This document shows, one piece after another, positions 9,193 to 56,714 of a stretch of DNA of 64,000 bases. Below the pieces are notes generated by a model. It searched no databases. It worked only from the letters and a program-made list of their open reading frames with translations, and had not been told where the DNA came from. The position numbers and the translations under genes are program-made. The stretch is from the IMG/VR virus record IMGVR_UViG_2974597119_000001, positions 30,006-94,005 of that record; one strand, given 5' to 3'. Positions within the stretch are counted from its first letter, which is position 1; each line of letters starts with the position of its first letter. Source of the stretch: a virus. Lineage: Duplodnaviria > Caudoviricetes.

Positions 9193-9530
9193 CAACAGCC
9201 GCCACGCCCGCCGCACAGGGTGAATCAAATTTGATTTATCATTCGCACATCAATGGAAATTCTGGAGCAACCGTGAACACGCCCGCCGCGCCGCAATCTA
9301 TGGCGCCGATCATCCTGGCGCACCCCGCGCCGCTACTGCTTGCCATCGCCAGCCGTTGCCGCAAGGGCCTGACAACCGTCGACGACGCCGAAGCGCTCGA
9401 GGAGCTGGCGAGGCAGGCGGAGAAACAGATTCAAGATCAGGCTGCATGACAAGGCAGAGCAAGGTTTAATGCGGGTATCCGCCCGCCGCCATTGCCGCCC
9501 GGGCGCGTATAGGGCGCAGAAAGGAAAGGT

Positions 9531-9752
9531 GTGAGCACCACGAAACCCACGATGCCGCCGCTCCCCGAGTGGGATGACGTGCGCGACAAGGTAGACGCAG
9601 AAGGCATGGAAGCTCTGACCGCCATCGAGCGCCTTGTCTACGAAAACGAGCCGTATGTCGGCGCCGCTGAATGGCGCGACTTCACGCAGGCCGCCCTGCA
9701 GGAAGCGTTCGACCTGGGCGTGATCGCGGGCCGCAAGGAAGCGCCGCTATGA
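9531..9752 (+). CDS. Hypothetical protein
   Basis: AGGAAAGG RBS; first of several overlapping ORFs. Confidence 0.6.
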   Translation: MSTTKPTMPPLPEWDDVRDKVDAEGMEALTAIERLVYENEPYVGAAEWRDFTQAALQEAFDLGVIAGRKEAPL

Positions 9753-10039
9753 GAACGCCAATCCTTTTCATCGGCGGACCGGCCGATGGCCGGCGGAAGG
9801 TCGTGGAACACATGCCGGAATTATGGCGCGTCGAGACCATGCCAGGACTTAGCGAGCACCTTTACCGACCGACGCGCAAATCTGATCAGCCAGTGAGGTT
9901 CGAGGCCGTGCGCCATACCTACCGCCTCGAGCACCTGTACGGCGGCAACGGCCAAACGTTCCCCGTCTACGTCCATACCGACAACACGCAGGACACGATT
10001 GCCATGCTACTGGCCGGCTACCGGGAGGCGCGCGCATGA
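9749..10039 (+). CDS. Hypothetical protein
   Basis: ATGA overlap; MRTPILFIGGPADG start common in small phage proteins. Confidence 0.6.
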   Translation: MRTPILFIGGPADGRRKVVEHMPELWRVETMPGLSEHLYRPTRKSDQPVRFEAVRHTYRLEHLYGGNGQTFPVYVHTDNTQDTIAMLLAGYREARA

Positions 10040-10458
10040 CCCCCGCCGAACAACGCGCCTGGGCCCGCCTGACCGCCGACATGGCCGGCGGCGCCCACCA
10101 GTACGACTACTGGGAGGACGTGCCGGCGGACGTGCGCCAGCGCTACCTCGCGGCGACCGCCGAGCCGGTCTACGTCTCCCGCCTAACCGGCGCCGAGCTC
10201 GAGCGCTGGGCCGCGCGCGCCGCCGGCCTGGAATCGCTCGATGGCGTCGACGTGCTCGAGCGTATCGTCGAGCACTACCGGATCAAGGTCTCGCCGCTGC
10301 GCGAGATCCGCCGCGACTTCGTGCCGGCGGGCTGGGCTGCTGCAGTGGCGCACGATCCCGTCATGCCCCTGATGTTCGGCGCCACCGCACGAGAGGCCAC
10401 GCTGCGCGCGCTGGTCGGCTCGAAGTTTGGCTACACCGTTACCGAGGAGCAGGATTGA
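10036..10458 (+). CDS. Hypothetical protein
   Basis: ATGA overlap; codon bias. Confidence 0.6.
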   Translation: MTPAEQRAWARLTADMAGGAHQYDYWEDVPADVRQRYLAATAEPVYVSRLTGAELERWAARAAGLESLDGVDVLERIVEHYRIKVSPLREIRRDFVPAGWAAAVAHDPVMPLMFGATAREATLRALVGSKFGYTVTEEQD

Positions 10459-10868
10459 AGCGCGTCACCCCCAACAAGCTCGGACGCACCGCGCAGTCCG
10501 CCATCATGAGCCCGCTGACCGCTGGCCTTGTCGCGCTGCGCCTGGGCCGCGCCGACGCCGAGCACTACCACGACCTCGCCGGCGGCATGTCCATCGCCTA
10601 CCGCGCCGCCGAGCTCGTGCCGCGCCACCGGCACCTGCTGGCCGAGCTGCAGCCGGCGCTGGACGCGCTGAACGCGATCTTCGCTCGGCACCAGCAGCGC
10701 ACGGTCGAGGATGCACCGTGGAGCGGCACGGTCGAGGAAGTCGATCAGGTCGAGAACGGCATGCGTATTTATGAGGGTCTGATCAGGACGACGCCGGGCC
10801 CCGTGATGCTGCGCGCCATCGCGCGCGTGAGGCTCGATGCGGCCGAGGCCGCGAACGTACCAGACTGA
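10455..10868 (+). CDS. Hypothetical protein
   Basis: TTG start overlapping the previous stop, GAGGAG upstream. Confidence 0.55.
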   Translation: MKRVTPNKLGRTAQSAIMSPLTAGLVALRLGRADAEHYHDLAGGMSIAYRAAELVPRHRHLLAELQPALDALNAIFARHQQRTVEDAPWSGTVEEVDQVENGMRIYEGLIRTTPGPVMLRAIARVRLDAAEAANVPD

Positions 10869-10994
10869 TTGTCTGTTGCTCGAGCGCGACAACCCGCTGC
10901 GCAATCAGCGGGCTTTATCATTTTTGAGCGATAATGGACCCACATAGGGCGCAACGCTCTCAACCCACCGCGCTACGGCGCACAAGGAAAGGCT

Positions 10995-12188
10995 GTGAAC
11001 CATGTCATCCACGAAGAAGGATCTCGCCCCGTAAAAATCTGGACCGATGAGGTCGAGGACAGCGCGCTCACCCAGCTCAAGAATCTGGCGCGCCTGCCGT
11101 TCATCCACGGCAACGGCGTCGCGGCCATGCCCGACGTTCACGCTGGCATCGGCGCCACGGTCGGCAGCGTCATCGCGACGGACAAAGCGATCATCCCGGC
11201 CGCCGTCGGCGTCGACATCGGTTGCGGCATGAACGCCGTGCGCCTGTCGCTCAAAGCGTCCGACCTGCCGGAAAGCCTGACCGCCATTCGCCACCAGATC
11301 GAGCGCGACGTGCCGCTGGGCGCCGGCGGCGCACACAAGCCCGACCGTATGCCGACCATGCCCGAGCATCTGTGGAACGGCCTGGGCCTGCTGACCGCGA
11401 AGCACGAGGCCCTGGAAAAGAACAGCGCCGGCCGCCAGCTCGGCACGCTCGGCTCCGGCAATCACTTCATCGAGCTCTGCCTGGACGAGAACCAGGACGT
11501 GTGGATCATGCTGCACTCCGGCTCGCGCGGCATCGGCAACCTGATCGGCCGCTACTTCATCGAGAAGGCCAAGCGCCGGATGGAGCAGTATTTCATCAGC
11601 CTGCCCGACGGCGATCTCGCCTACCTGCCCGAGGACACCGACGACTTCAACGATTACGTCGAGGCGGTGAACTGGGCCCAGGACTACGCGCTCGAGAACC
11701 GGCGCGTCATGATGGAGGCCGTCATCGCCGCGCTGCGCCGGCATGTGTCGTCGCACCTTTTCGACTTCACGATCACCCAGGAAGCGATCAACTGCCACCA
11801 CAACTACGTCGAGAAGGAGAACCATTTCGGCCGGAACCTGTGGGTCACGCGCAAGGGCGCCATCCGCGCGCGCGCCGGAGACTTGGGCATCATTCCTGGC
11901 TCGATGGGCCAGCGCAGCTACATCGTGCGCGGCAAGGGCAATGTCGAATCCTACTGCTCATGCTCGCACGGTGCCGGCCGGAAGATGAGCCGCGCCGCCG
12001 CGCGCCGGATGTTCACGGTCGACGACCTGAAAGCACAGACCGCCGGCGTCGAGTGCCGCAAGGACGACGCCGTGCTGGACGAGATCCCGGCCAGCTACAA
12101 GGACATCGACGCCGTGATGGAAAACCAGCGCGATCTCGTCGAGGTCGTGCATGTCCTGAAACAAGTTCTGTGCGTCAAGGGCGCGTAA
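10995..12188 (+). CDS. rtcB: RtcB RNA ligase
   Basis: MPDVHAG, VGVDIGCGM, GTLGSGNHFIE, HSGSRG, CHHNY, SCSHGAGR, DEIPASYK. Confidence 0.95.
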   Translation: MNHVIHEEGSRPVKIWTDEVEDSALTQLKNLARLPFIHGNGVAAMPDVHAGIGATVGSVIATDKAIIPAAVGVDIGCGMNAVRLSLKASDLPESLTAIRHQIERDVPLGAGGAHKPDRMPTMPEHLWNGLGLLTAKHEALEKNSAGRQLGTLGSGNHFIELCLDENQDVWIMLHSGSRGIGNLIGRYFIEKAKRRMEQYFISLPDGDLAYLPEDTDDFNDYVEAVNWAQDYALENRRVMMEAVIAALRRHVSSHLFDFTITQEAINCHHNYVEKENHFGRNLWVTRKGAIRARAGDLGIIPGSMGQRSYIVRGKGNVESYCSCSHGAGRKMSRAAARRMFTVDDLKAQTAGVECRKDDAVLDEIPASYKDIDAVMENQRDLVEVVHVLKQVLCVKGA

Positions 12189-12196
12189 GGGAAGAC

Positions 12197-14362: not shown

Positions 14363-14705
14363 AGCATTCCTCTACATCGCCACGACCGCGCTGTTCGTGG
14401 TGTGGGAAGCCTGCAAGCGCGTGCACGGCTGGTGGCGTCGGCGGGGATGATCATGATCGCCTACCTGCTCGACAACCCGCCGCTGGTCATCGCCATCGTC
14501 ACGGGCCTGATCCTGGCCGTGGTGTGCGCCGTTGCAAACTGGCCTCGACGGAAACAGATCAGAAATCAGTTGTCCGCGCGCAACAGAGCCAGCAATGACG
14601 CGGGTTCCGAGCGGTATACTGAAATCGTAGGGCGCTCATAGGGCGCAACAACGTGGATTCACATTCGTCGGCAGAGACTGTACTGTCGGCGCCGAGGGGA
14701 AAATC

Positions 14706-15071
14706 ATGAAGCGCATTCTCGTATCCATCCTGGCCGCCGCCATAATGGCGCCCGTCGCCGCGCACGCTGGCGACTTCATCGCCAAGCGGCTGCAGGACGA
14801 CGGCTCGATCATCGGCCTGACATCGGTGCCGTGCGACGGCGAGCCCGGCCACAAGGCGCTGATCGCCAAGGGCAACTGGATGGGCGCCGGCTGCTACCTC
14901 GTGATGCCCGACGGCTCCGTCAACGTGCGCTGGATCTGGAAGAAGGATCCGCTCGACGCGTACCAGCGCATCGAGCCCGCGCAGCTCCAGCCGGTCGGCG
15001 ATTTCAAGGGCTGGCCCGCCGTCGACTGGTCCAAGCAAGCGCCGTTGTCGCCAAAAGGCAACAGAGGCTGA
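14706..15071 (+). CDS. Secreted hypothetical protein
   Basis: Sec signal ending in AHA; GAGGGG RBS. Confidence 0.7.
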   Translation: MKRILVSILAAAIMAPVAAHAGDFIAKRLQDDGSIIGLTSVPCDGEPGHKALIAKGNWMGAGCYLVMPDGSVNVRWIWKKDPLDAYQRIEPAQLQPVGDFKGWPAVDWSKQAPLSPKGNRG

Positions 15072-15112: not shown

Positions 15113-15188
15113 CGTGGTGTAGCGCAGTTGGGAGCGCGCCGGGCTCATAACCCGGAGGTCGCAGGTTCGAGTCCTGTCACCGCAACCA
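15113..15188 (+). tRNA. tRNA-Met(CAT), initiator-like
   Basis: Cloverleaf, CAT anticodon, C1:A72 mismatch, GGG/CCC anticodon stem, encoded CCA; TAGAAT -10 at 15101. Confidence 0.93.
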
Positions 15189-15195
15189 GATTCAT

Positions 15196-15208
15196 CGCTC
15201 TTTCAAAA
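15196..15208 (+). promoter_or_regulatory. boxA-like antitermination element
   Basis: CGCTCTTTCAAAA resembles rrn boxA TGCTCTTTAACA and sits at the start of the RNA cluster. Confidence 0.45.
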
Positions 15209-15263
15209 CTTGTCGCGAGCACGTCGACGCCATCGAAGATGGCCGAGGCGGAAGCTCATGAAT

Positions 15264-15339
15264 TGCCAAGTATCTCAGTTGGTAGAGAGGCGCACTGTTA
15301 ATGCGCATGTCGCTGGTTCGATCCCAGCCTTGGCAGCCA
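15264..15339 (+). tRNA. tRNA-Asn(GTT)
   Basis: TGCCAAG/CTTGGCA acceptor stem, GTT anticodon, G73, CCA. Confidence 0.95.
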
Positions 15340-15495
15340 GAATGTCTACCACCGACGCTCAGCTTGCTGAGCAGCTAGATGCCAGCCTAGGGTGGGAATG
15401 GCTGGACCCAAACCGGACGGGTATTGCGGGCGTGTGGTAACGCTCAAGAGACGGGGACTACGCCCGACTGGCCGCCGTAAGCGGCCATCGATTTC

Positions 15496-15573
15496 CGGTC
15501 CCTAGCTCAGTCCGATTAGAGCGTTCGCTTTGGGAGCGAAGGGTCGCAGGTTTGAATCCTGCGGGACCGACCA
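15496..15573 (+). tRNA. tRNA-Pro(TGG)
   Basis: CGGTCCC/GGGACCG acceptor stem, TGG anticodon, CCA; variant T-loop TTTGAAT. Confidence 0.92.
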
Positions 15574-15993
15574 GAATTGCAGCAGTGCCGAGCCCGCTCG
15601 ATGACGACTGAGTGCCCAACTGGCGGGAAACAAGTTCGTCCGATTGGCCCCCGTTAACAGGCCCGTGAGCTCCCTGGCAACAGGGACCACACGTAAGCAG
15701 GTTGGTCGGATAGCGGCGCAAGCCGTGATGCTTCCGAGGTGATGACCAGCCAGCCTGCTACCGTGTGGTGCTCAGCCCCAGTTGAACCTCTGAAACATGA
15801 GACCGGCCCCGGAAGGTGTAGCTTCGGCACGACCGCCCAAGGACTGGCAGATAGCAGACACTGAGCACCGCTCGCATACACCTGTGAGAGAAGTCCCCGC
15901 CGACGCCAGAAGCTGGCCGAGGGGCAGGCGCAGATCGGAGTCGTAAGCCGCCAAATCGAGTAGCACGTAACCTGGGCCGCGTAAGTGCCCAGG
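15574..15993 (+). ncRNA. Unassigned structured RNA, region A
   Basis: No credible ORF; nested stems ACCACACG/CGTGTGGT and GGTGCTCAG/CTGAGCACC; GCAA tetraloop hairpins. Confidence 0.5.
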
Positions 15994-16069
15994 ATCCTCA
16001 AGACGTGGTGCTGAACATCCTTGGTCGGGTTTCCGGGGTGGTTCCCGGACAGCACCACGCCTTGAGGAT

Positions 16070-16378
16070 GGTAGTGTGCGGGCCTCGGCCCGCGAGACGT
16101 GAAGTGAATGGCGTTCGGACGCGGGTTCAATTCCCGCCGGCTCCACCACTGGCAGCATTGGCGTCGAGCTCAGCATCCCCGGGGTCCGGATCACGGGTGA
16201 GTTCCAGTGCTGCCAGTCATGGGGCCGACCGGTTTCGACGGGCGCGCTGCAGCGGATCGGACTACTCGGCAAGCGGAGCCGTAAACCAAGCAAAATCGTA
16301 GACGCCAACGACGACTACATCCGCGCCGCTGCTTAAGCGGTGACGGCCTCCCCCGGCAGGTGGCAACAGAAGCCGGGG
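16070..16378 (+). ncRNA. ssrA: Circularly permuted two-piece tmRNA: acceptor piece ~16070-16148, intervening segment 16149-16220, coding piece 16221-~16378; tag ANDDYIRAAA
   Basis: T-arm plus CGGCTCCACCA precedes GGGGCCGACCGGTTTCGAC; G3:U70 pair; tag ORF 16304-16336. Confidence 0.92.
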
Positions 16379-16436
16379 ACCATCATCGAAGCGGCATTCG
16401 AGCCGGGGATAAGCCCGGCCCGCTTCGATGATGGTG

Positions 16437-17330: not shown

Positions 17331-17480
17331 CTTCAAAAAATCGAGTCCGATCAACGGGTTAAGTCCCTGTTTGAAACCTACTTGCGCGCTTCTGGCGCAC
17401 ATAATCCACATGCCCATTTGCTAAATCGTGCGCGGCCACAGATTGGTCACAGAGCAACAAACCAACAGTCCACACCCATC

Positions 17481-18377
17481 ATGCGCGCACATGGCAACAA
17501 TCGGATTACTGAACCTATCGTGAAGTATCGCCCAGGCACCGTGCACACAGAGCACAACGTGCACGGGCTGAGCATTCACCACGTCTCGGACGTGACTGGG
17601 GTCGAAAACATCCTCGTCCCCGAGCACTCGATATTCCTGGTCAACACACCCGTGATCTCACTGGATACGTGGCAAGGGGAGCGCCTGCCCCCGCGCCACT
17701 GGGCTACCGGCGACGTAGCGTTTCTACCGGCCGGATCAGAAATCACATCCACCCCGGATAGACCCTACGGCAGTGCCATGATCCGCGTGAACGACGAGGC
17801 GTTCAAAAGGGCCACGAGCTGCGACCTGCAGTACGACAGCGCCGAGCTTCGGTATGTCGGAATGTCGAACCCCATCGTCTCCCGCATCGCGACCACAGTG
17901 GCAATTTCTCTCGTGCAGCATCCGCCATGCGCCTTGCTTGTCGATAGCCTCGCGACGACCCTGAGCATCGCAGTGCTCAACGAGATCACCGGCAGGCCCA
18001 GGAAGGAGATGAGCGGAGCCCTCTGCCCCAAGAGGAAGCAGCGCGTGATCGAGTACATCGAGGCGAATATTGGGGATCCAATCACCCTGTCCGAACTCGC
18101 GAGCGTGGCGGCGCTCAGCCCTCACCATTTCAGCCGGTCGTTCCGTCGGACGTTCGGTGTTTCGCCAGTGCGATACGTCTGGACGCGGCGCATCGACATG
18201 GCAAAGCGGTTGATGCGCTACTCGGCGCTGCCGCTCGCGGCGGTCGCCTTGACGTGTGGCTTCTCCAGCCAAAGCCACTTCTCGACGGCGTTCCGGGTGG
18301 CGACCGGAGTGACGCCGGCCGCCTACATGCGCACGATCACCGATATCGCGCGACCGAGGGATTCTCGAGCGACCTGA
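17481..18377 (+). CDS. AraC-family transcriptional regulator (start uncertain)
   Basis: ITLSELASVAALSPHHFSRSF...VALTCGFSSQSHFSTAFR double HTH. Confidence 0.9.
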   Translation: MRAHGNNRITEPIVKYRPGTVHTEHNVHGLSIHHVSDVTGVENILVPEHSIFLVNTPVISLDTWQGERLPPRHWATGDVAFLPAGSEITSTPDRPYGSAMIRVNDEAFKRATSCDLQYDSAELRYVGMSNPIVSRIATTVAISLVQHPPCALLVDSLATTLSIAVLNEITGRPRKEMSGALCPKRKQRVIEYIEANIGDPITLSELASVAALSPHHFSRSFRRTFGVSPVRYVWTRRIDMAKRLMRYSALPLAAVALTCGFSSQSHFSTAFRVATGVTPAAYMRTITDIARPRDSRAT

Positions 18378-18408
18378 TGCGCAATCAGACGATCTGACCG
18401 GAAGAAGC

Positions 18409-18445
18409 AAGCCCCGCAGTCGTTTCCAACGTGCGGGGCTTTTTT
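18409..18445 (+). terminator. Rho-independent terminator
   Basis: AAGCCCCGCA...TGCGGGGCTTTTTT. Confidence 0.8.
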
Positions 18446-18557
18446 AGGGCGCCGATAGGGCGCAGCAGCATCACTCAGAAAGAATCCAGCTTAGGCTTTC
18501 ATGGCGGTCTCCGGTGACGGTTGATCAGGCGTTCACACGATGAACCGCCATTGTACA

Positions 18558-19313
18558 TCACGACCGCCAGTCAGAGATCCCCAGCTCGTCGCGCATCACC
18601 TCGTCGACCTCATCGCCCAGGTCAGGGCGGCGAGCGGCGATGTATTGTGCCAACGCACGACTCGAGCCGCCGGCCGACTCCAGGACGCGCATCACGTCCG
18701 TGCGCCGTAGCTGCTCGACGGAATCCGCCGCGATCTTGATCAGGTGCTCCATGTCCTCGCCGCCAGCCGGCGCCGCCGAGGCACCGATACCCAGCCGCTC
18801 GTTCAGCACGCCCGGCCGGTGATTGTCCGACACGACGCCGGCCGTGCCGAAGGAATCGAACGTCGAGCGCGGGTCCGCCTTCTCGGCCTCCTCGCGCGCG
18901 CGGTCGACGTGCGCCAGGGCCTCGTCGTGCGTGTCGAACGGGCCAGCCAGCCGCGCGACGCCACGCCCCTCTCGCGCCATCGTCACGTAATACTTCCGGC
19001 GCGGGTCGTCGTCGTCCGGGCCCTGCTTGGTGCTGCGCACAGCTTCGCGCGCCTCCGCCTCGTCGGCCATGCGGTCGTAGCCCTTGGCGTCCTCGTGGTG
19101 GCCGCGCTCGCGGTACTTCCGCGCCATGTCGCGAAAGCGCTCGGAATCGGATTGCTTCGGCGCTGGCGTGGCCGCCGGCGCCGGGAACAGCGCGAGCTGG
19201 CCGGTCGCTGCCGACGCCACCGCGCCGCCCTTGCGCTCGTGCGGCTTCACGTAGCGTCCGGCGCGCATGTAGCCGGCAACATGCGATTTCAGGAACAGGA
19301 TGACGGTGCTCAT
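18558..19313 (-). CDS. Putative virion-internal protein
   Basis: Late promoter motif; N-terminus VILFLKSHVAGYMR..YVKPH resembles those of DarB and the HD hydrolase. Confidence 0.65.
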   Translation of the reverse strand: MSTVILFLKSHVAGYMRAGRYVKPHERKGGAVASAATGQLALFPAPAATPAPKQSDSERFRDMARKYRERGHHEDAKGYDRMADEAEAREAVRSTKQGPDDDDPRRKYYVTMAREGRGVARLAGPFDTHDEALAHVDRAREEAEKADPRSTFDSFGTAGVVSDNHRPGVLNERLGIGASAAPAGGEDMEHLIKIAADSVEQLRRTDVMRVLESAGGSSRALAQYIAARRPDLGDEVDEVMRDELGISDWRS

Positions 19314-19319
19314 GCCGCG

Positions 19320-19334
19320 ATTGTCGTTTCACGA
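19320..19334 (-). promoter_or_regulatory. Late promoter motif, leaderless
   Basis: TCGTGAA-AC-GACAAT-N6-ATG. Confidence 0.7.
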
Positions 19335-19463
19335 CCACACTCGCGGCGTCGCGAATCATTTTTGATCTACAATTTCACTTCACGCTTTTTCACTACAGGG
19401 ACGCGCCTCGAATACGAGACGTGACAAGAAACTCAAGTGCCGTGAACCAACGCGGCCTCCTCT

Positions 19464-20480
19464 ATGAACGATCTGAAACTTGACGGGGCAACCGTCCTGC
19501 TCGGCGACTGCATCCAGCGCCTGAAAGAACTTCCAGACTGCAGCGTCCAGATGTGCGTCACCAGCCCGCCCTACTTCGGGCTGCGCGACTATGGCGTCGA
19601 CGGACAGATCGGACTCGAGGAAACGCCGGATGCGTACATCGCCAAGATGGTCGATGTGTTCCGCGAGGTGCGTCGCGTCCTCGCAGACGATGGCACGCTG
19701 TGGCTGAACATTGGGGATAGCTACGCCAGCACTGGCGGCCAGGGCAAGCAGAGCGGACCGCAATTCGCTAATCGCGCGGTTGGCAAAGAGCACGTCACCA
19801 AAGCAGCGCGATACGTCGGCGGCGATGCAAAGCCCAAAGACCTGATCGGCATTCCATGGATGCTCGCCTTCGCCCTGCGCGCTGATGGCTGGTATCTGCG
19901 GCAGGACATCATCTGGCACAAGCCCAACCCGATGCCCGAGAGCGTGCGCGACCGTTGCACCAAGGCGCACGAGTACGTGTTCCTGCTGTCGAAGTCGGAG
20001 CGCTACTTCTACGACGCCGAGGCGGTGAAGGAGCCTGCGGTAAGCGAAAGCCCAGCAGGAAATCGGACTCATAGAGGGGCAACCGCTGATGCCGCCGGCG
20101 AACTCGGGCATCGGACAAAGGCCGGCCTTACCGCGTTGCGTGGTGTCGAGTGGGTCACCCGCAACCGCCGCAGTGTCTGGACCGTGCCAACCCGCCCGTA
20201 CAAAGGCGCGCACTTCGCCGTGTTCCCGCCTGCCCTGGTCGAGCCGTGCATCCTGGCCGGCAGCAGGCCCGGCGACGCGGTTCTCGACCCGTTCAACGGC
20301 AGCGGCACGACCGGGCAGGTCGCCATCGAGCATGGGCGCGAATACGTCGGAATCGAACTGAATCCGGAGTACGTCGATCTCACGCGCCAGCGGTTGGACC
20401 GCGCGATCGCGGAGCGCGATGCGGCAATAGCTGCGGCATCTCCATCGCCGCAGGCTGAACTTTTCGGGAGCGTGGCATGA
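19464..20480 (+). CDS. Orphan DNA methyltransferase (N4-C/N6-A, beta class)
   Basis: VTSPPY...HFAVFP...VLDPFNGSGTT. Confidence 0.93.
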   Translation: MNDLKLDGATVLLGDCIQRLKELPDCSVQMCVTSPPYFGLRDYGVDGQIGLEETPDAYIAKMVDVFREVRRVLADDGTLWLNIGDSYASTGGQGKQSGPQFANRAVGKEHVTKAARYVGGDAKPKDLIGIPWMLAFALRADGWYLRQDIIWHKPNPMPESVRDRCTKAHEYVFLLSKSERYFYDAEAVKEPAVSESPAGNRTHRGATADAAGELGHRTKAGLTALRGVEWVTRNRRSVWTVPTRPYKGAHFAVFPPALVEPCILAGSRPGDAVLDPFNGSGTTGQVAIEHGREYVGIELNPEYVDLTRQRLDRAIAERDAAIAAASPSPQAELFGSVA

Positions 20481-20716
20481 AGGTCATCCCTCGCTACCGC
20501 AAGCGCGTCTACCCGCTGGCCGGCGTGACGGTCTACTACCTCGACCGCATCGTGCCGATGCCGCACGGCATGGGGCCGCTGCTGCTGTCGCATTCGGTCG
20601 CCATCAGCAACACCGAGATCGAGCAGGCCGAGAAAGGCCGCTCCCTCGCTGCCTACCGGCTTCTGCGCGCGCGCCGCGAGATCCGGTCCATCGACATCAC
20701 CAGGAGAAAGGATTGA
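20477..20716 (+). CDS. Hypothetical protein
   Basis: ATGA overlap. Confidence 0.55.
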   Translation: MKVIPRYRKRVYPLAGVTVYYLDRIVPMPHGMGPLLLSHSVAISNTEIEQAEKGRSLAAYRLLRARREIRSIDITRRKD

Positions 20717-21642
20717 AAATCGACCTCGAAGCCATGAAGGCGGCCGCGCTCGCGGCCCAGCACGGCGCCGACCCGGAGCACCCGTGGGAGCTGGCCGGCC
20801 ATACCGCCTACCAGCTCGAGCATGCCGGATGGCGCCGTGGCGTGGAGCAATTCCAGAACCGCATCTACGCGAGCGTGCAGCGCGGGCCCAACACGACGGA
20901 GGCCCAGGCCAATGCCGTCGCGGCGCACATCGTCGCCGCGCAGCCCGCCGTCGTCCTGGCGCTGATCGAGCGGCTGGAGCGCGCCGAGAACGTCATCAAC
21001 AACCCGCGCCTCACCGGCCTGACCGTTCACGACAACCTCGTGAGCATGGGCCTGGAGGGCGCCGCGTGTCAGGCATTCGCCGAGGCGTTCGCGGAACAAT
21101 TCCGCCGCGCCGGGTCGGTCAACTACCTGGAGATGTCGTTCGACCACAGCGACGCGGAGATTGGCCCGCTGGTTGTGACCGTGCAGCGCAGCCAGGGCAA
21201 GACGCCGGGCGCGCTTCGCGCCGAGGCGGAAACCCGCGCCGAGCGTGCCGAGGCCGAGGCGGTCGACCTGCGCGCCGCCATCCGCAAGCAGGCCGCCGCC
21301 GCCACGATGGGCATGGACGAGGCGAAGCGCGGCGCATCAATCATGCTCAAGCGCGCCGAGGAGCTGCACGGCCAGTCCAACCCCGACGCGCTGGCATCCG
21401 AGCGCGCCGCGAACGCCATGCTGACCGAGGAGAACGAGCGGCTGCGCGCCGAGCTCGAGGCGGCCGAGGAGCGCAATCGCATCTACAGGCGCATGACCGG
21501 CTACTGCGTGGGCGGAGAGAAATTGACCCGCGAGGAATATCCGGGGCTGTTCTCGGCGGCGGACGAGGCCGCGAAGAACTACACCGGCGGCGATTTCAAG
21601 CTGCCGGACCTGAAAGGCCAATTCATCAAGGGGCAGTCATGA
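20713..21642 (+). CDS. Ead/Ea22-like coiled-coil protein with C-terminal tail-collar-like segment
   Basis: HIVAAQPAVVLALIERLE motif; C-terminal REEYPGLF...FKLPDLKGQFIKG. Confidence 0.6.
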   Translation: MKIDLEAMKAAALAAQHGADPEHPWELAGHTAYQLEHAGWRRGVEQFQNRIYASVQRGPNTTEAQANAVAAHIVAAQPAVVLALIERLERAENVINNPRLTGLTVHDNLVSMGLEGAACQAFAEAFAEQFRRAGSVNYLEMSFDHSDAEIGPLVVTVQRSQGKTPGALRAEAETRAERAEAEAVDLRAAIRKQAAAATMGMDEAKRGASIMLKRAEELHGQSNPDALASERAANAMLTEENERLRAELEAAEERNRIYRRMTGYCVGGEKLTREEYPGLFSAADEAAKNYTGGDFKLPDLKGQFIKGQS

Positions 21643-22085
21643 ACCGTCGCGGCTTCCTAAAATCCCTCGCCGGCGCGGCCGCTGTCGGCGCCCTGCCGGG
21701 GTTGTCGTTTTCCTCGGCCCGGGCGCTCACCCGGTCGGTCGACCCTCTGCTGAGCGGTCTCCCGGAGACCGACGGTCAATGGCCGGTTGGCGTCGTGATG
21801 CCCTGGGCGACCAGGAAGCATCCCGGGATGGTCTACCTGATCAAATGCGGCCGCGCCAAATGGGAACTGGCTTATGGGCAGGATCTGCATAGCAGCGCGT
21901 ACCCTGAGCTGTTCGAGGCAATCGGGCACAGCTATGGCGGATCGGGCAAGTGGTTTCGTGTGCCTGATTTGCGAGGTCAATTCATACTGCCGGCGGGCCG
22001 CCACGCGCTGACCACCAGACACCGAGTCTGTTTTCCAACGCATAAATTCCCTTACGAATCATGCGTTGTGCGCTCAAGCGCATAA
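21639..22085 (+). CDS. Tat-signal protein with tail-collar domain
   Basis: MNRRGFLKSLAGAAAVGA; PVGVVMPW...AYPELFEAIGHSYGG...FRVPDLRGQFI. Confidence 0.7.
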   Translation: MNRRGFLKSLAGAAAVGALPGLSFSSARALTRSVDPLLSGLPETDGQWPVGVVMPWATRKHPGMVYLIKCGRAKWELAYGQDLHSSAYPELFEAIGHSYGGSGKWFRVPDLRGQFILPAGRHALTTRHRVCFPTHKFPYESCVVRSSA

Positions 22086-22236
22086 TCTAGGGCGCACATA
22101 GGGCGCGGCGGCTGACAATCCATCCCAGGTTCCCACACCCTGAACTGTCCGCGCTGGCCCCACACCGGCGCGCAGGCCGCCGCGCCCACGTCGACCATTT
22201 GCCATAACGCCCGGGTCAAGCAAGCGACTTGTTGAC

Positions 22237-25357: not shown

Positions 25358-25372
25358 ATTCTAGTGTCACGA
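25358..25372 (-). promoter_or_regulatory. Late promoter motif (terminase)
   Basis: TCGTGAC-AC-TAGAAT. Confidence 0.75.
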
Positions 25373-25776: not shown

Positions 25777-26100
25777 TTTTGATTCCTTTGGCGCCCCATG
25801 TGCGCCCTAAGATCAGCGCCCTGAACGGATCGCCTTTGTTGGCGCGGTTTCCCGCGCGAAATCGTCTGACTGCGGATCAGTTTTTCGGCAGCTTCACTTT
25901 GTCGGCTTCCTGGTAGCGGCCCATGCCGTGCAGCTCCGCCATCGCATGCGTCAGCTCGCGCGTGGCCTTCGCGCGGATCCAGCAGCGCACCTGCCAGATC
26001 AATTCGCCGGACAGAGCGCCCAGGCCAACCCACACCAAATGATCAAACCATTCCATGATTGCTCCTAAATGATGCCGGCGGCCGGCCGGCGCGGTACAGA

Positions 26101-28000: not shown

Positions 28001-28015
28001 ATTGTGGCGTCACGA
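28001..28015 (-). promoter_or_regulatory. Late promoter motif, leaderless (metallopeptidase)
   Basis: TCGTGAC-GC-CACAAT-N6-ATG. Confidence 0.75.
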
Positions 28016-30629: not shown

Positions 30630-30741
30630 TTTCGGTTCTTGTGCGCCCTATGCGCGCCCTAAACATTGCCGGTTGCCCGGAGACCCGCATAAACGCTTGC
30701 TGTGCGGGGCTAGATAGCCTGACTAACTATCTGGTTTGGAT

Positions 30742-50783: not shown

Positions 50784-52106
50784 ATGCACATCGCAAAAAT
50801 CAAGTTCAGCAACATCCTCGGCATCGCCGAGATGGAATTGTCGCCCAAGGGCTTCACCGAGATCAGCGGGCCCAACGGTTCCGGCAAAACCAGCATCCTT
50901 GAGGCTATCAAGGCGGTGCTCGAGACCGGCCACGACGCGACGCTGCTGCGCAAAGGCGCCGAGAAGGGCGAAGCCGTGCTCGTGCTCGACGACGGCACCG
51001 AGCTCAGCAAGACCGTGACGCCGACCGGCAGCACGTCGGCGGTGCGCCGCGACGGCAAGAAGGTGCCGCGCCCGGCCGAGGTGATCAAGCAGCTCACCGA
51101 CATGATCAGCGTCAACCCGGTCGACTTCCTGCGTGCGCCGAAGAAGGACCGCGTGCGCGTTCTGCTGGAGGCCATGCCGCTGGAAGCCGACGCCGAGAAG
51201 CTGGCCGAGATCGCCGGCGTCAAGGTGACGGCCGCGCCCGGCACGCACGCCCTGCAGGTGATCCAGCAGGTCCACACCGAGGTCTACGACGCGCGCACCG
51301 GGACCAACCGCGCCGTCAAGGAAAAGAAGGCGACGATCACCCAGCTCGAGCAGGCCGTGCCGCCCGTGCCGGCGGGCGCCGACGGCGACGAGGCGGAGCT
51401 GGACGCCGCGCTGCAGGAGATCGACGCCGCGCGCGATGCGGAGCTGGGCCGCATTTCGACCAAGCTGGACGGCATCCGCGCGGACACGCGCACGAAGATC
51501 GACGCCATCCGGACCAAGCTGCAGGCCGACATGGACGCGCTCAAGGCGGCGGCCCAGGCGGAGGTCGACGCGATCAACGCCGAGCTCGCCAAGCGCGAGA
51601 CCCAGGCGGCCGCCGCGCGCGAGCGCAACGTCACGACGTTCGCCGCCCAGCGCGAGCCCATCGCCGCGCAGCTCGGAACGCTGCGCCAGAACCGCGACCT
51701 GCACGCACGCCGCGCGCAGACGCTCGAGACCATCGGCGTGATGGAAACCGAGCTCGAGGAGTTGGAGACCCAGGCCGAGCGCCAGACGCAGGCCCTGGCC
51801 GCCATCGAGCAGTACAAGTCCGACCTGCTGAACAGCCTGCCGATCCCGGGCCTCGAGGTGCGCGACGGCGAAATCTATCGCGACGACGTGCAATTCGACC
51901 GGCTCAACACCGCGCAGCAGGTCGACGTGGCGGTCGAGATCGCGAAGCTGCGCGCCGGCGACCTGGGCGTCATCTGCGTCGACGGACTCGAGTCCCTGGA
52001 CACCGAATCGCTCGACGCCTTCCGCGACCGCGCGCTGGAAAGTGGACTCCAGCTTTTCGTGACTCGAGTCTCTGACGACGACTTTTCTATCAGCACCGAC
52101 GACTGA
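50784..52106 (+). CDS. SMC/Rad50-like ATPase
   Basis: GPNGSGKTS, coiled coil, ICVDGLESLD. Confidence 0.85.
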   Translation: MHIAKIKFSNILGIAEMELSPKGFTEISGPNGSGKTSILEAIKAVLETGHDATLLRKGAEKGEAVLVLDDGTELSKTVTPTGSTSAVRRDGKKVPRPAEVIKQLTDMISVNPVDFLRAPKKDRVRVLLEAMPLEADAEKLAEIAGVKVTAAPGTHALQVIQQVHTEVYDARTGTNRAVKEKKATITQLEQAVPPVPAGADGDEAELDAALQEIDAARDAELGRISTKLDGIRADTRTKIDAIRTKLQADMDALKAAAQAEVDAINAELAKRETQAAAARERNVTTFAAQREPIAAQLGTLRQNRDLHARRAQTLETIGVMETELEELETQAERQTQALAAIEQYKSDLLNSLPIPGLEVRDGEIYRDDVQFDRLNTAQQVDVAVEIAKLRAGDLGVICVDGLESLDTESLDAFRDRALESGLQLFVTRVSDDDFSISTDD

Positions 52107-53915: not shown

Positions 53916-54119
53916 GTGTCCAGGAAGTATTTCACGCCGGCAGAGGTGTCCGACCGATTCGGAGGCAGGATCTCCGTTCGGACCCTCGCCAACTGGCGGT
54001 ATCTCGGCACGGGCCCGAAGTTCAGTCGCCTCGGCGGGCGCATCCTCTACCCGGTAGAGGCCCTGGACGAGTGGGAGCGAACCAGAACGGTCGAGAGCAC
54101 CAGCGAATACCGGAGATGA
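53916..54119 (+). CDS. Excisionase-like HTH protein
   Basis: ISVRTLANWRYLGTGPKF..LGGRILY. Confidence 0.8.
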   Translation: MSRKYFTPAEVSDRFGGRISVRTLANWRYLGTGPKFSRLGGRILYPVEALDEWERTRTVESTSEYRR

Positions 54120-54923: not shown

Positions 54924-55249
54924 TTTACGTCGACGACATGCGCGCCCGGTACGGCCGGATGGTCATGTGCCACATGCTGGCCGACACCGACGAGGAGCTG
55001 CACGCGATGGCGGCCCGGATCGGCGTGGCGCGCCGCTGGTGGCAGGCGCCGCCGCGCCACGACAGCCACTACGACATCGCGCTCAGCAAGCGCGCCCTGG
55101 CAGTAGCCGCCGGCGCCGTCGAGATCACCTGGAGGCAGGCCGGCGCCATGAACTACCGGCGCCGCGTGCTGGGCGTCCTGGGGGCGCCGGAGGATGCCGT
55201 GCAGTGGATGCTCGACCACCGGGCCGCGCGCCGCGCCCAGGCCGCATGA
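54920..55249 (+). CDS. DUF4031-like protein
   Basis: MIYVDD...CHMLADT.EELH...HYDI. Confidence 0.8.
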   Translation: MIYVDDMRARYGRMVMCHMLADTDEELHAMAARIGVARRWWQAPPRHDSHYDIALSKRALAVAAGAVEITWRQAGAMNYRRRVLGVLGAPEDAVQWMLDHRAARRAQAA

Positions 55250-55307
55250 CGCCGAGCAATCGTGACAACAAACCAAGTGCGGAACCAACCGCACCTCAAG
55301 GAAACTT

Positions 55308-56405
55308 ATGGAATGGTCAGGACAGCAGGCCGCCGCGCTCAAGAAGGTCAGCGCGTGGCTGCGTGACAAGAAGGGCAAGCAGGTATTCCGCCTATTCGGC
55401 TACGCCGGCACCGGCAAGACGACCCTCGCTATGGAGCTGGCGGCCGCCGCACGGGGGCTCGTCGTGTTCGCCGCCTTCACGGGCAAGGCCGCTCTGGTCC
55501 TGCGTTCCAAGGGTTGCGAGAACGCCAGCACGATCCACAGCCTGATCTACCGGCTGGTCGACGACGGCGAGGGCGAGCCGCGTTTCGTCCTGAACCGCGA
55601 CAGCTTGGCGAGCGTGGCGTCCCTGATCGTCATCGACGAGGTGTCGATGGTCGATGAGGAGCTGGGCCGCGACCTGCTCAGCTACGGCACGAAGGTGCTG
55701 GTGCTGGGCGACCCGGCCCAGTTGCCGCCGGTGCGCGGGACTGGCTTCTTCACGGCGGTCGAGCCGGACATCATGCTCACCGAGATCCACCGGCAGGCGC
55801 GCGACAACCCCATCATCCACCTGTCAATGCAGGCCCGCGAGGGGCTGCGTCTGGCGCCGGGCGCCTACGGCGAGAGCCGGGTGATCACCAGGGCCCAGCT
55901 CGAGCGCCAGGACGTGCTGGAGGCGGATCAGGTACTGGTGGGCATGAACAAGACCCGGCGCGCCTACAACGCGCGCCTGCGCCAATTGAAGGGGCTGGAG
56001 GGCCTGCTGCCGCTGGCCGGCGACCGGATGGTGTGCCTGCGCAACAACAAGGACAAGGGCCTGCTGAACGGCGGCATCTGGACGGCGCCCAGGCCGAGCC
56101 GAGAGAGCGCCGGCATCGTGACGATGGAGGTCGAATCCCTCGACGACCCGAGCATCACCAGCCCGGTCGAGGTCGAGGTGCCGCTGGAGTTCTTCCGAGG
56201 CACCGAGGCAGACCTGGACTGGCGCAAGCGCCGGAACCACGACGAGTTCGACTACGGCTACGCACTGACCGTGCACAAGGCGCAGGGCTCAGGCTGGGAC
56301 GAGGTGATGCTGTTCGACGAAAGCGGCTCGTTCCGCGAGAACCGGCGCCAGTGGCTCTACACGGGCGTCACCCGCGCGGCCGAGCGCATCACAGTTGTGA
56401 TCTAG
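55308..56405 (+). CDS. RecD/Dda-like SF1 helicase
   Basis: GYAGTGKTT, IDEVSM, GDPAQL, TVHKAQGS, YTGVTRA. Confidence 0.92.
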   Translation: MEWSGQQAAALKKVSAWLRDKKGKQVFRLFGYAGTGKTTLAMELAAAARGLVVFAAFTGKAALVLRSKGCENASTIHSLIYRLVDDGEGEPRFVLNRDSLASVASLIVIDEVSMVDEELGRDLLSYGTKVLVLGDPAQLPPVRGTGFFTAVEPDIMLTEIHRQARDNPIIHLSMQAREGLRLAPGAYGESRVITRAQLERQDVLEADQVLVGMNKTRRAYNARLRQLKGLEGLLPLAGDRMVCLRNNKDKGLLNGGIWTAPRPSRESAGIVTMEVESLDDPSITSPVEVEVPLEFFRGTEADLDWRKRRNHDEFDYGYALTVHKAQGSGWDEVMLFDESGSFRENRRQWLYTGVTRAAERITVVI

Positions 56406-56421
56406 GCACACACACCGAGCC

Positions 56422-56714
56422 TGTGCCCTACCTGCGCCCTAACTCAAAATCCCGGGCGCAGTGGCCCGCTTGACTAAAGCGGGCCACCCGTGCAAATCGT
56501 TGATTTAGCAGTGATTTTTAGAGGGGCGATTGGGGCGGCCGACCGGACTTGAACCGGCGACATCCAGAATCACAATCCATTCTCAGGGTTTACCCGAATA
56601 TCACGGATGATCATTTTTGGTCATCATAACAACGGGTTAACTCAAGGATGGGCGCCTCGGCAAACCCTAAAATTCACGCCGCATCCCGGGCTTTTGCGCC
56701 CTGGATGTGCCCTA
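56422..56714 (-). repeat. Paired arm-type-like repeats flanking the attP core (56422-56441, 56695-56714)
   Basis: TAGGGCGC-N3-TAGGGCAC and TAGGGCAC-N3-CAGGGCGC. Confidence 0.65.
56531..56578 (-). other. attP core = 3' half of tRNA-His(GTG)
   Basis: Minus strand GGATTGTGATTCTGG...GGTTCAAGTCC...GCCCCA; no 5' half; upstream of the integrase. Confidence 0.85.

Follow-up and report, generated by a model that had tools for sequence, protein, structure and literature searches.

Composite arm-plus-core repeats between the accessory modules of a temperate phage as candidate sites for its own P4-type integrase

The attL of phage lambda is a well-known substrate of a heterobivalent tyrosine integrase, and its P' arm combines the core site C', the IHF site H' and the tandem arm-type sites P'1-P'3. 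Integron gene cassettes consist of an ORF and an attC site, pdif modules are carried by Acinetobacter plasmids, and the PeSL cassettes of T4-type phages bear an early promoter and a terminator and are used via homologous recombination. The general scheme of arm-type and core-type sites has been described for heterobivalent tyrosine integrases together with the autorepression of int through arm-type sites, as typified by IntS of prophage KplE1 (at argW) and by P4 Int (PMC2951348). Among the intergenic repeats of mycobacteriophages, the stoperators of Cluster A are individual sites of 13-14 bp to which the immunity repressor binds (PMC9283540, PMC6550527); in Cluster K the SAS includes the ribosome-binding region, and the inverted repeats of the ESAS (17 bp) lie directly upstream (PMC3203893).

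We analysed a 64,000-nt stretch of DNA (hereafter the window) belonging to a 94-kb temperate phage (complete genome 94,005 bp), in which a first-pass annotation had reported a short repeat, TAGGGCGC (hereafter the box), occurring in pairs at attP and at seven distant sites. The repeat proved to be real, with 12 exact copies of the 8-mer in the window (2.06 expected; maximum of 6 in shuffles), and pairs of the form TAGGGCGC-N3-TAGGGCGC (at most 2 mismatches, 11-bp period) were far above chance (8 found in the window, 0.09 expected), starting at 9499, 14628, 18445 and 22088 on the (+) strand and at 25791, 30643, 56423 and 56696 on the (-) strand. The 94,005-bp genome held no additional box pairs beyond the window. 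Six of these pairs are distal, and the seventh distal site (10934) is a half-site, with an intact second box and a first box that agrees at 4 of 8 bases. The pairs are absent from four candidate host genomes (Reyranellaceae, 6.6-9.8 Mb), which contained only 0-2 one-mismatch hits (the control level), and the motif is, judged by these counts, not a host motif.

The pairs on both sides of the attP core were likewise confirmed, with 1 and 2 mismatches. The P' arm pair (56423..56441, (-) strand, 1 mismatch) lies 122 nt from the tRNA-His anticodon-stem core, and a hairpin (56461-56487) and an element resembling the IHF consensus (approximately 56497-56510) are located between the two. The common core (56526..56577, (-) strand) is the reverse complement of the 3' part of the host tRNA-His (anticodon loop through CCA, with 5 further nt); 45 nt of it (56531-56575) match exactly the 3' part of tRNA-His in 26 Reyranellaceae/alphaproteobacterial genome records (Reyranella and Enhydrobacter included), and the phage copy of the anticodon stem-loop occupies 56564-56580. 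The P arm pair (56696..56714, (-) strand, 2 mismatches) is placed approximately 50 nt upstream of the start codon of the tyrosine integrase gene int (56766..58079, (+) strand; 437 aa, ATG at 56766, Shine-Dalgarno sequence GAGGAAAG), whose product has the domains Arm-DNA-bind_3 (E = 2.3e-13, above the curated cut-off), Phage_int_M (score under its cut-off) and Phage_integrase. A candidate recombination directionality factor (RDF), namely an HTH_17 (excisionase/AlpA-like) protein, is encoded at 53916..54119 ((+) strand); it is present in the relatives G003, G004 and G005 and missing from G001 and G002. The attB tRNA is tRNA-His for this phage (G000) and tRNA-Arg for relatives, and at least nine phages (G000, G003, G004 at attL, G005, L129, L132, L134, L135 and L138) have box pairs on either side of a tRNA-derived core next to int, with tRNA-His, Arg(ACG), Gly(CCC) and a Leu(CAA)-like tRNA serving as targets. 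Together with the arm domain of Int and the absence of a host counterpart, this comparison gives good support to the boxes being putative arm-type sites of the integrase.

The first-pass annotation saw only the arm half of a larger unit and missed an inverted repeat that is conserved 56-58 nt upstream of every pair. The whole unit (hereafter the cassette) measures approximately 92 bp and is composed of the inverted repeat CCWGA-N7-TCWGG (found in 7/7 distal cassettes), a spacer of 56-58 bp (fixed in length, non-conserved in sequence) and two boxes 11 bp apart, situated on a single side; this composite pattern retrieves exactly the 7 distal sites, as compared to 0.11 in shuffles. The cassettes lie exactly at the borders between accessory modules, reaching from the preceding stop codon to the Shine-Dalgarno sequence of the gene that follows, and form two arrays converging on the terminase gene; the 7-bp centre of the inverted repeat differs from slot to slot within the genome.

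The (+) array is opened by cassette 1 (9426..9517; inverted repeat 9426-9440, 58-nt spacer, arm pair 9499-9517 with first box CCGGGCGC), situated between the start of the divergent portal gene (9171) and a GTG start at 9531. Cassette 2 (10861..10952, (+) strand; inverted repeat 10861-10875, 58-nt spacer, only the second box, 10945-10952, intact) lies upstream of an RtcB-like ligase gene (10995-12188), and cassette 3 (14555..14646, (+) strand; inverted repeat 14555-14569, 58-nt spacer, perfect arm pair 14628-14646) upstream of an ORF (14706-15071) and a tRNA/tmRNA cluster. In cassette 4 (18374..18463, (+) strand; inverted repeat 18374-18388, 56-nt spacer, perfect arm pair 18445-18463) the inverted repeat overlaps the TGA of ORF 17382-18377, the next gene downstream (18558-19313, (-) strand) is convergent, and the spacer holds a terminator-like hairpin with a T run, in agreement with the terminator noted earlier ahead of 18445. 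The array ends with cassette 5 (22016..22106, (+) strand; inverted repeat 22016-22030, 57-nt spacer, perfect arm pair 22088-22106), which faces the 3' end of a convergent DUF2493-like gene (22237-22578, (-) strand) and TerL (22578-24674, (-) strand), an arrangement that is the same in the relatives G144 and G145. On the (-) strand, the inverted repeat of cassette 6 (25791..25880; inverted repeat 25866-25880, 56-nt spacer, arm pair 25791-25809) overlaps the stop of ORF 25877-26056 ((-) strand), with the ATG of ORF 25426-25776 located 14 nt downstream, and cassette 7 (30643..30733; inverted repeat 30719-30733, 57-nt spacer, perfect arm pair 30643-30661) is placed between a zinc-ribbon gene (30742-31035, (-) strand) and ORF 30375-30629 ((-) strand), in a slot that is kept in all relatives examined. 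As annotated, the pairs at 9499, 25791 and 30643 precede a start codon with a Shine-Dalgarno sequence, at a distance of 13-14 nt.

Some 20 related viral contigs yielded approximately 87 cassettes, all of them located between modules of accessory genes. Their spacers are unconserved in sequence and measure 56-58 nt in 71 cases, 45-47 nt in 13, and 49, 61 or 69 nt in one each, with lengths of 45-47 or ~68 bp confined to some relatives. The anticodon arm of the host tRNA-His reads CCAGA-N7-TCTGG, as does that of the tRNA-Arg at the attL of provirus G004, and both equal the cassette consensus. The attP of G144 carries tRNA-Gly(CCC) (3' half AAGCTG), and 4/5 of the G144 cassettes have the right half AAGCTG and not ARTCWG, which suggests that the cassette half-site covaries with the tRNA target, on the strength of one specificity switch and with the caveat that homogenisation may have made the cassettes within one genome alike. 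In G148 a stretch of exactly 57 nt separates the end of the attP element AAATCTGG from the arm pair that follows it, and G003 and G005 have one distal site each, with a geometry common to the distal site and attP (74 nt or 63 nt). As the real core of this phage and of G004 lies 122-124 nt from the arm pair, as compared to 57 in cassettes, the latter are not simple copies of an attP arm. Furthermore, identical 15-mer cores (centres included) are found in orthologous slots of G001 and G146 even though the spacers there are no more alike than background, and cores are shared across unrelated contexts in modest excess (approximately 5-6 observed vs 2 expected, by our own estimate). The IHF consensus core CAR-N4-TT clusters at -28/-27 from the boxes (12 of 17 spacer occurrences in 64 cassettes of relatives), being found there in a minority of cassettes (approximately 12-18 of 64) and in 0/7 of those in the window. 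G001 and G002 retain int and 6-7 cassettes, without a recognisable attP and without the HTH_17 RDF.

Like lambda attL, the cassettes have an inverted core with a 7-bp centre, tandem arm boxes spaced by about one helical turn on one side only and, in a minority of the relatives' copies, an IHF-like element at the midpoint of the spacer, and the integrase has a separate arm-binding domain. Unlike lambda attL, they are present in seven copies outside attP, within gene arrays and each with its own centre sequence, their core-to-arm distance is 57 bp (122 bp in the attP of this phage), and most of their spacers are devoid of an IHF consensus, many being hairpins. The anticodon-arm match, the boxes at attP and the arm domain of Int lead us to regard the cassettes as compact attL-like (core plus arm) sites, and we consider it probable, from the comparison of sequences, that they are bound by Int. 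The P4-type tyrosine integrase of the phage would then recognise a composite site of ~92 bp, its arm-type half being the TAGGGCGC pair and its core-type half the inverted repeat, which would copy the anticodon stem-loop of the tRNA genes used as attB by this integrase clade. The N-terminal arm domain of Int would sit on the boxes, and its core-binding and catalytic domains on the inverted repeat; the spacer, apparently helically phased in length and carrying a hairpin/terminator or (in about one fifth of the relatives' cassettes) an IHF-like element midway, would bridge both contacts when bent and so generate one compact attL-like half-intasome per cassette.

Because an att-like module is copied seven times between accessory blocks, the integrase may also shuffle or control these blocks. 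On the assumption that the cassettes are Int-bound att-like sites, it is a finely balanced question whether module exchange is their main role, and Int-dependent repression or insulation has a smaller, albeit appreciable, claim to it; the full explanation that we favour (composite arm and core integrase sites serving as module-exchange junctions) is put forward tentatively, as falling just short of such a balance. According to it, the cassettes would most likely act as site-specific junctions at which related phages swap, acquire or shed accessory modules, the slot-specific 7-bp centres would block recombination among cassettes of the same genome, and Int occupancy would probably also reduce read-through into the following module, as a side effect. 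In line with module exchange, the gene content between cassettes is unrelated among relatives, the same module is found behind different cassettes in G001 and G004, homology begins at the left half-site in L025/L028/L035 (and also between G001 and G002), and G002 contains a hybrid cassette with the core of one G001 cassette and the spacer and arms of another, the intervening module being gone. Synteny breaks at the sites, which had been proposed as a check, were thus often seen at cassette edges, but some breakpoints fall directly past the boxes (L025 vs L028) or away from cassettes, so that the mosaicism could be due to ordinary recombination, homologous or illegitimate, at short conserved sequences. 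It also counts against module exchange that the cassettes bear arm boxes on one side only and that, to our knowledge, P4-type integrases have no established canonical reaction in which both partners are attL-like. Nevertheless, since cassettes lie exactly at the borders of varying modules and breakpoints at cassette edges, the integrase-linked gene acquisition that had been offered as an alternative appears to fit better than the stoperator-like regulator that had been preferred.

As in integrons and pdif modules, mostly co-oriented accessory modules are each bordered by what resembles a tyrosine-recombinase-type site beginning at the stop codon, and the gene content of the slots varies between relatives; unlike there, the place of IntI or XerC/D is taken by a P4-type Int that has an arm domain, the units are double-stranded and composed of core and arm (not folded attC hairpins), and the centres differ between slots. 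An integron proper was ruled out by the P4-type Int, by the fact that no attI/Pc platform was seen, and by the half-site W positions, which are complementary in 29/42 cassettes only, so that the stem is not maintained. Like PeSLs, the cassettes are short and conserved, lie between genes, include a stem-loop and are placed where shuffled accessory genes adjoin, and they differ from PeSLs in having no conserved promoter and in conserved ends that appear to be integrase-type sites.

The main rival to module exchange, which we regard as rather doubtful, is that Int (with or without IHF) wraps the cassettes so as to block or insulate, in a stoperator-like manner, the transcription or initiation of the module that follows, the autorepression of int at arm-type sites being widened to the entire accessory region and recombination being a by-product. 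IntS of KplE1 and P4 Int, which repress their own promoters via arm-type sites, offer a precedent (PMC2951348), and the likeness extends to a P4-family integrase with a tRNA-gene target, to arm-type boxes just upstream of int (56696-56714; 40-75 nt ahead in relatives) and, by analogy, to the integrase as a possible DNA-binding regulator; in KplE1 and P4, however, the control is local (own promoter inside attL/attP), whereas the boxes here recur 26-47 kb off, each with a core-like repeat. Regulation would agree with the position of the boxes (ending 7-20 nt ahead of the Shine-Dalgarno sequence and start codon in many cassettes), with the constant presence of the first slot among relatives, and with the centres differing within a genome, as neutral drift would predict for a pure binding site. 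Orientation speaks for it in G001 and G004, where every cassette is co-oriented with the genes, but only in part here: the sites had been described as all following local transcription, which holds for 5/7, while those at 18445 and 22088 (cassettes 4 and 5) face convergent genes and have no co-oriented gene downstream. The three -10-like hexamers previously linked to the boxes do exist, but none is conserved ahead of the boxes in 64 cassettes of relatives, where conservation is limited to a T at -1/-2, and neither the boxes nor the sequence ahead of them contain a conserved promoter element; a distinct motif resembling a promoter (TCGTGAC-N2 followed by a -10-like box; 8 occurrences vs 0.32 expected) stands directly ahead of gene starts and was never found at boxes. 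Moreover, repression through the arm domain needs no full inverted core with a 7-bp centre, and leaves unexplained the complete attB-like core at a helically phased distance in each distal site, as well as the cores and centres conserved in orthologous slots despite spacer divergence.

With stoperators, the boxes share a short, asymmetric intergenic motif in many copies per phage, mostly along transcription and absent from the host, and differ from them in forming a tandem pair that also occurs at attP and is accompanied, at a set distance, by an attB-like inverted repeat. The alignment of all sites with transcription that typifies stoperators failed at cassettes 4 and 5, and no immunity repressor for a stoperator-type system was identified, the box motif being shared with attP instead. 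Two promoter readings of the boxes were also rejected: a sigma-54 promoter would place the transcription start approximately 4 nt ahead of the ATG at 25791 and 30643, too close to accommodate a Shine-Dalgarno sequence, and a T7-like promoter lacks its polymerase, as PHROG and Pfam scans of the main ORFs of the window revealed no phage RNA polymerase.

It is unlikely that another phage factor (the zinc-ribbon pair 30742-31035 / 31029-31550, or an HTH protein) reads the cassettes as terminator/promoter-type units comparable to PeSLs or SAS/ESAS, their presence at attP reflecting shared site use. Both Cys-rich genes are found in 6/6 genomes, directly upstream of the first cassette, approximately 14/37 spacers are strong hairpins (several with T runs), and composite start-associated repeats whose function is unknown do exist in Cluster K mycobacteriophages (PMC3203893). 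Like SAS/ESAS, the cassettes are composite intergenic repeats with an asymmetric box a few bases before starts (in SAS/ESAS preceded by an inverted repeat in a subset), kept across subclusters ahead of unrelated genes and absent from the host; unlike the cassettes, SAS were not found at attP and ESAS repeats are unrelated to attB (PMC3203893). The boxes on both sides of the attP core in at least nine phages, and an inverted repeat that equals the attB anticodon arm and switches with the tRNA target in G144, point to Int instead; furthermore, the zinc-ribbon proteins have no assignable DNA-binding family, and G001 and G002 possess cassettes without the HTH_17 protein.

We consider it improbable that the cassettes are decaying, functionless scars, left by serial integration at tRNA-like sites or by the spread of a selfish miniature repeat. 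Degenerate copies are indeed present (the 10934 site here, and several G148 cassettes with the right half-site only), and in the G004 lineage the first box is identical to the 3' acceptor strand of the tRNA-Arg targeted there, hinting at a tRNA-derived origin; yet the end motifs and their spacing are preserved in approximately 87 copies from phages with a protein identity of only 40-60%, while the spacer is free to vary, and selection is indicated by length classes that are helically phased and by half-sites that covary with the target tRNA. That the cassettes act as RNA (a 5'-UTR or intercistronic signal in which an anticodon-stem-loop mimic and tandem UAGGGCGC are read by an RNA-binding protein or nuclease) is very improbable, for in spite of the co-orientation with genes in most genomes, the abutting Shine-Dalgarno sequences and the tRNA-repair-type genes of the phage (RtcB-like ligase, phosphoesterases, tRNAs and tmRNA), the stem is not maintained, no Rfam family matched the cassettes at the gathering threshold (the only matches in the window being three tRNAs and a permuted tmRNA), the attP boxes are oppositely oriented relative to int, and two cassettes face convergent genes.

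The first slot, located behind the zinc-ribbon genes, is occupied in all relatives and holds the sole distal cassette of G003 and G005, in which respect it resembles a fixed regulatory site.

The box pair that the first-pass annotation had noticed on both sides of the attP core and again at distant sites proved to be a genuine, phage-specific repeat occurring far above chance: the single box TAGGGCGC is found 12 times (2.06 expected) and the pair TAGGGCGC-N3-TAGGGCGC, allowing up to 2 mismatches, 8 times (0.09 expected), no shuffle reaching either count and no pair being found in a scan of the genome's first 30 kb. At one of the sites reported (10934) the second box is intact, whereas the first is not, and the attP pairs are the least perfect of all (1 and 2 mismatches). 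The possibility of a host-factor motif was ruled out, as in four Reyranellaceae-type host genomes (6.6-9.8 Mb each) the exact pair is absent and one-mismatch pairs (0-2 per genome) stay at the level of the reversed-pattern control, which assigns the motif to the phage and not to its host.

Alignment of the sites brought out a second conserved element, missed in the first reading, upstream of each distal pair: an inverted repeat (CCWGA-N7-TCWGG, scanned as CWGAY-N5-RTCWG) whose distance to the first box, over unconserved sequence, is 56-58 nt. The composite pattern (boxes relaxed to 4 mismatches) recovers exactly the seven distal sites (0.11 in shuffled sequence), here called cassettes 1-7 (9426-9517, 10861-10952, 14555-14646, 18374-18463 and 22016-22106 on the plus strand, and 25791-25880 and 30643-30733 on the minus strand). 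Through box-pair scans of viral contigs and the fetching of relatives, the collection was enlarged from 42 to 64 and then to 87 distinct cassettes on approximately 20 contigs, with spacers of 56-58 nt in 71 cases, 45-47 nt in 13, and 49, 61 and 69 nt in one each (a cassette found separately in the related genome G148 has 81 nt). The two main spacer classes are about one helical turn apart, and such a fixed, phased distance over free sequence would be expected if a single nucleoprotein complex read both ends. Strong hairpins are present in about 14 of 37 spacers (some with T runs, e.g. at 18445), and in some cassettes an IHF-consensus-like core (CAR-N4-TT, often inside TAAATCAA) occupies a fixed register near the spacer middle (12 of 17 occurrences at -28/-27 from the boxes); it was found in none of the seven cassettes of the window. 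In its component parts (core, bendable spacer and tandem arm sites), each cassette corresponds to an attL-type site. Furthermore, the 7-bp centres of the inverted repeats all differ within the phage studied, which would prevent recombination among the cassettes that a genome carries. As a separate observation, four AT-rich and unrelated IMG/VR contigs (L004, L017, L021 and L030, one of them labelled GVMAG) carry long tandem arrays of the 11-bp unit ATGTAGGGCGC, which appear iteron-like and are devoid of the cassette architecture.

The attP call was correct, since the 45-nt stretch 56531-56575 matches, without a single difference, the 3' part of tRNA-His from 26 genome records; most of these are of Reyranella, Enhydrobacter and other Reyranellaceae, the likely host group. 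The adjoining tyrosine integrase (Int, 56766-58079) begins with the ATG at 56766 and is 437 aa long; its Arm-DNA-bind_3 and catalytic domains exceed the Pfam cut-offs, the central-domain match being weaker. Measured from the anticodon-stem part of the core, the arm pairs are 122 nt away on one side and about 115 nt away on the other, the second of them about 50 nt upstream of the int start. The reading of the boxes as arm sites was corroborated by relatives with other targets, in which T[A/C]GGGCGC pairs stand on either side of a segment of tRNA origin immediately before int (tRNA-Arg(ACG) at the attL of provirus G004 and in loci L132, L134 and L135; tRNA-Gly(CCC) in L129 of genome G144; a tRNA-Leu(CAA)-like core in L138 of genome G148; a core not assigned to a tRNA in G003 and G005). 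Moreover, the G005 integrase aligns to that of the phage over the arm domain only (residues 4-102, 50% identity), and its boxes are the same. At the G004 attL (L037, 1554-1870) the 3' acceptor strand of tRNA-Arg(ACG) is TTCGGGCGC, which is also the arm-type box of that lineage, and at least 8 further boxes and a second tRNA-3'-end-like remnant follow downstream; this may hint at a tRNA origin of the arm-type boxes.

The inverted repeat, in turn, resembles the anticodon arm of the target tRNA. That of the host tRNA-His reads CCAGA-(7-nt loop)-TCTGG, and identical stems are found in the tRNA-Arg of the G004 attL, where the adjoining bases also fit the cassette consensus (RTCWGGGNNTCA); anticodon-centred crossover sites are already known as a major class (PMC4383910). 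We consider the covariation seen in G144 to be the strongest point in favour of an attB-like core: its attP carries tRNA-Gly(CCC), whose anticodon arm has the 3' half AAGCTG, and in 4 of its 5 cassettes the right half-site is AAGCTG and not ARTCWG. The geometry is consistent with this, as AAATCTGG in the G148 attP ends exactly 57 nt before its arm pair, and in G003 and G005 (a single distal site plus attP each) both kinds of site have the boxes equally far from an AAATG element present in each (74 nt in three cases and, one helical turn less, 63 nt in one). The W positions of the two half-sites are complementary in just 29 of 42 cassettes, which fits a protein reading DNA half-sites and not an RNA/DNA hairpin; an RNA hairpin was rejected on this count and for want of an Rfam match. 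Plain copies of the attP P' arm were likewise rejected for the phage studied and for G004, in both of which the true core stands 122-124 nt from the arm pair, with an IHF-like element about midway, as against 57 nt in the cassettes; the cassettes are better described as a putative compact version of the attP arm. Fragments of tRNA 3' ends left by tandem integration would place the repeat about 21 nt from the box and not 57 nt, and would bring a T arm, which is missing. Just outside the G148 attP, whose core has 10 nt in common with the anticodon arm of the phage-borne tRNA-Leu(CAA), we observed the complete gene for this tRNA (L159, G148:C1:65070-65160), which may be a phage-borne stand-in for a host tRNA disrupted by integration.

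Taken together, these observations suggest that the box pair belongs, as the arm-type end, to a conserved and geometrically constrained core + arm unit of the phage's own integrase, and that Int probably reads the cassettes. The HTH_17 excisionase-like protein (53916-54119 in this phage), a candidate recombination directionality factor (RDF) found in G003, G004 and G005, cannot be the common cassette reader, as it is missing from the relatives G001 and G002, which retain 6-7 cassettes. Both of these genomes (L043 and L059, respectively) are complete with terminal repeats and have an intact integrase (58% identical) with a DksA/TraR-like neighbour gene; neither an attP nor a tRNA fragment could be recognised in them, no arm boxes lie near int, the HTH_17 RDF and the Dda-like helicase are absent, and similarity, ARAGORN and box scans for an attP were all empty. 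Homologues of Int at E <= 1e-60 were found in none of 138 genomes of the host's order, and a single-protein search of viral contigs gave no match; the viral relatives were recovered by alignment-based search.

On the assumption that Int does read the cassettes, module exchange is the function that we favour, with confidence evenly balanced. Between cassettes, relatives have almost nothing in common in gene content, and what they share is the replication and structural genes on the flanks; synteny breaks, which the first-pass annotation had suggested as a check, do fall at several cassette edges, although some lie elsewhere. G001 and G002 are a close pair that differs by a clean event: in G002 the module between cassettes A and B of G001 is absent, and the remaining hybrid cassette has its junction inside the right half-site that A and B share, with the inverted repeat of A before it and the spacer plus boxes of B after it. 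In the last slot of G001 versus G002, and in L025, L028 and L035, the left half-site marks the change from unrelated DNA upstream to cassette DNA that is shared. Moreover, a homologous module stands behind the first cassette in G001, G002 and G146 and behind a different one in G004 and G145. In orthologous slots of G001 and G146 the 15-mer core (centre included) is identical, with the spacer at background identity and flanks at 31-70% (translated comparison). Cores common to more than one genome number 10 of 72 distinct ones, and independent sharings in unrelated contexts (about 5-6, against about 2 by chance in our own estimate) are in modest excess. Against pure exchange speak one breakpoint just past the boxes, the many indels away from cassettes, and the first slot, which is kept in every relative and is the sole distal cassette in G003 and G005.

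Int-dependent repression or insulation, close to the stoperator-like role originally proposed, is a less favoured though substantial possibility. Local autorepression by integrases via arm-type sites is known (PMC2951348), as are stoperators and SAS/ESAS as dispersed asymmetric repeats. The 7-9 cassettes of G001 and of G004 all point in the direction of the genes and split an accessory region of 25-30 kb into groups of 1-9 genes; the inverted repeat begins at or inside the stop codon of the preceding gene, and in many cases the boxes end 7-20 nt before the next start. The phage studied, like G144 and G145, has its cassettes in two convergent arrays, both directed towards TerL (22578-24674, minus strand): cassettes 7 and 6 on the minus strand, and cassettes 1-5 on the plus strand, the latter array beginning beside the start of the portal gene (7423-9171, minus strand) and ending with a cassette that faces the 3' end of the TerL operon. 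This convergence leaves cassettes 4 and 5 without a co-oriented downstream gene, so that the reported orientation with local transcription holds for the other five only. The -10-like hexamers reported do exist, but no -35/-10 element is conserved at the cassettes. Among promoter-type readings, a sigma-54 promoter fits formally (GG-N10-GC), but the implied start leaves no room for a Shine-Dalgarno sequence and the direct repeat unexplained; PhoB/CII-type activator boxes in place of a -35 element would stand too near the start codons (13-14 nt); a T7-like promoter starting at the second-box GGG finds no phage RNA polymerase among the scanned ORFs; and a sigma-70 promoter in the spacer finds no conserved -35/-10 element, conservation there being limited to T at -1/-2 and a weak TT at -21/-20. 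A separate promoter-like motif (TCGTGAC-N2 followed by a -10-like box; 8 copies, 0.32 expected) never coincides with the boxes and occurs at 2581-2595, 4451-4465, 9178-9192, 25358-25372, 28001-28015, 29529-29543 and 60369-60383 on the minus strand and at 52057-52071 on the plus strand, mostly a few bases upstream of start codons (portal, a DarB-like gene, ORF 24674-25327).

Phage genomes are mosaics, and to our knowledge there is mostly no explanation of how accessory modules move while keeping clean borders; in the present case a defined, conserved site, apparently read by the phage's own integrase, is found at the module borders. Under the exchange reading, compact attL-like cassettes (an attB-mimicking core plus arm boxes, with an own 7-bp centre per slot) would serve as addressed junctions for an ordinary arm-binding integrase, through which phages could, independently of lysogeny, exchange accessory modules (for defence and counter-defence), take up new ones and lose others. 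We put forward tentatively, as a rather doubtful generalisation, that this family of temperate phages of about 90-98 kb (in Alphaproteobacteria and perhaps other hosts) might possess in this an integron-like platform, some members (G001 and G002) apparently retaining Int just for such use. A narrow literature search found no dispersed att-like cassettes within a phage genome. If Int recombines the cassettes, a classical integrase would have a further function, site-specific module exchange within viral genomes, on an integron-like principle that employs arm-type/core-type parts, and this would account for relatives that retain int without attP; if it only binds them, Int would be without precedent as an integrase that serves as a genome-wide architectural regulator and not as a local autoregulator. 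Either way, the box pair offers a practical marker for module borders and for the prediction of attB specificity in many uncultured phages, and the fixed-geometry core/arm unit might find use as a compact recombination target.

The whole phage record (94,005 bp, 65% G+C), of which the window covers bases 30006-94005, has only distant relatives among named phages and belongs with a family of 88-98-kb IMG/VR relatives, the proteins of which are 40-80% identical to its own. PHROG and Pfam scans of the window placed, besides the portal, TerL and integrase genes, an RtcB-like ligase (10995-12188), a DNA methyltransferase (19464-20480), a primase (42873-45716, minus strand), and helicase and RecE-like exonuclease genes. 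A cluster of three tRNAs and a permuted tmRNA occupies 15113-16427, the tmRNA (16095-16336, plus strand; Rfam RF04321, 104.5 bits) adjoining tRNA-Met, tRNA-Asn and tRNA-Pro. TerL is followed by a small DUF2493/SLOG-like gene (MKLLVCGGRDY...; 22237-22578, minus strand), which GC3-based gene calling made too long (to 22647). Two Cys-rich zinc-ribbon-like genes (30742-31035 and 31029-31550, both on the minus strand) are kept in 6 of 6 related genomes, always immediately upstream of the first cassette, which makes them candidate early regulators; protein-atlas look-ups yielded no function for them and no family could be assigned. Lastly, the module between cassettes 4 and 5 (18558-21642) has its own divergent promoter region and a reverse-strand gene of the uncharacterised phrog_20105 beside the DNA methyltransferase, and could represent a self-contained moron of restriction-modification-like or defence type.
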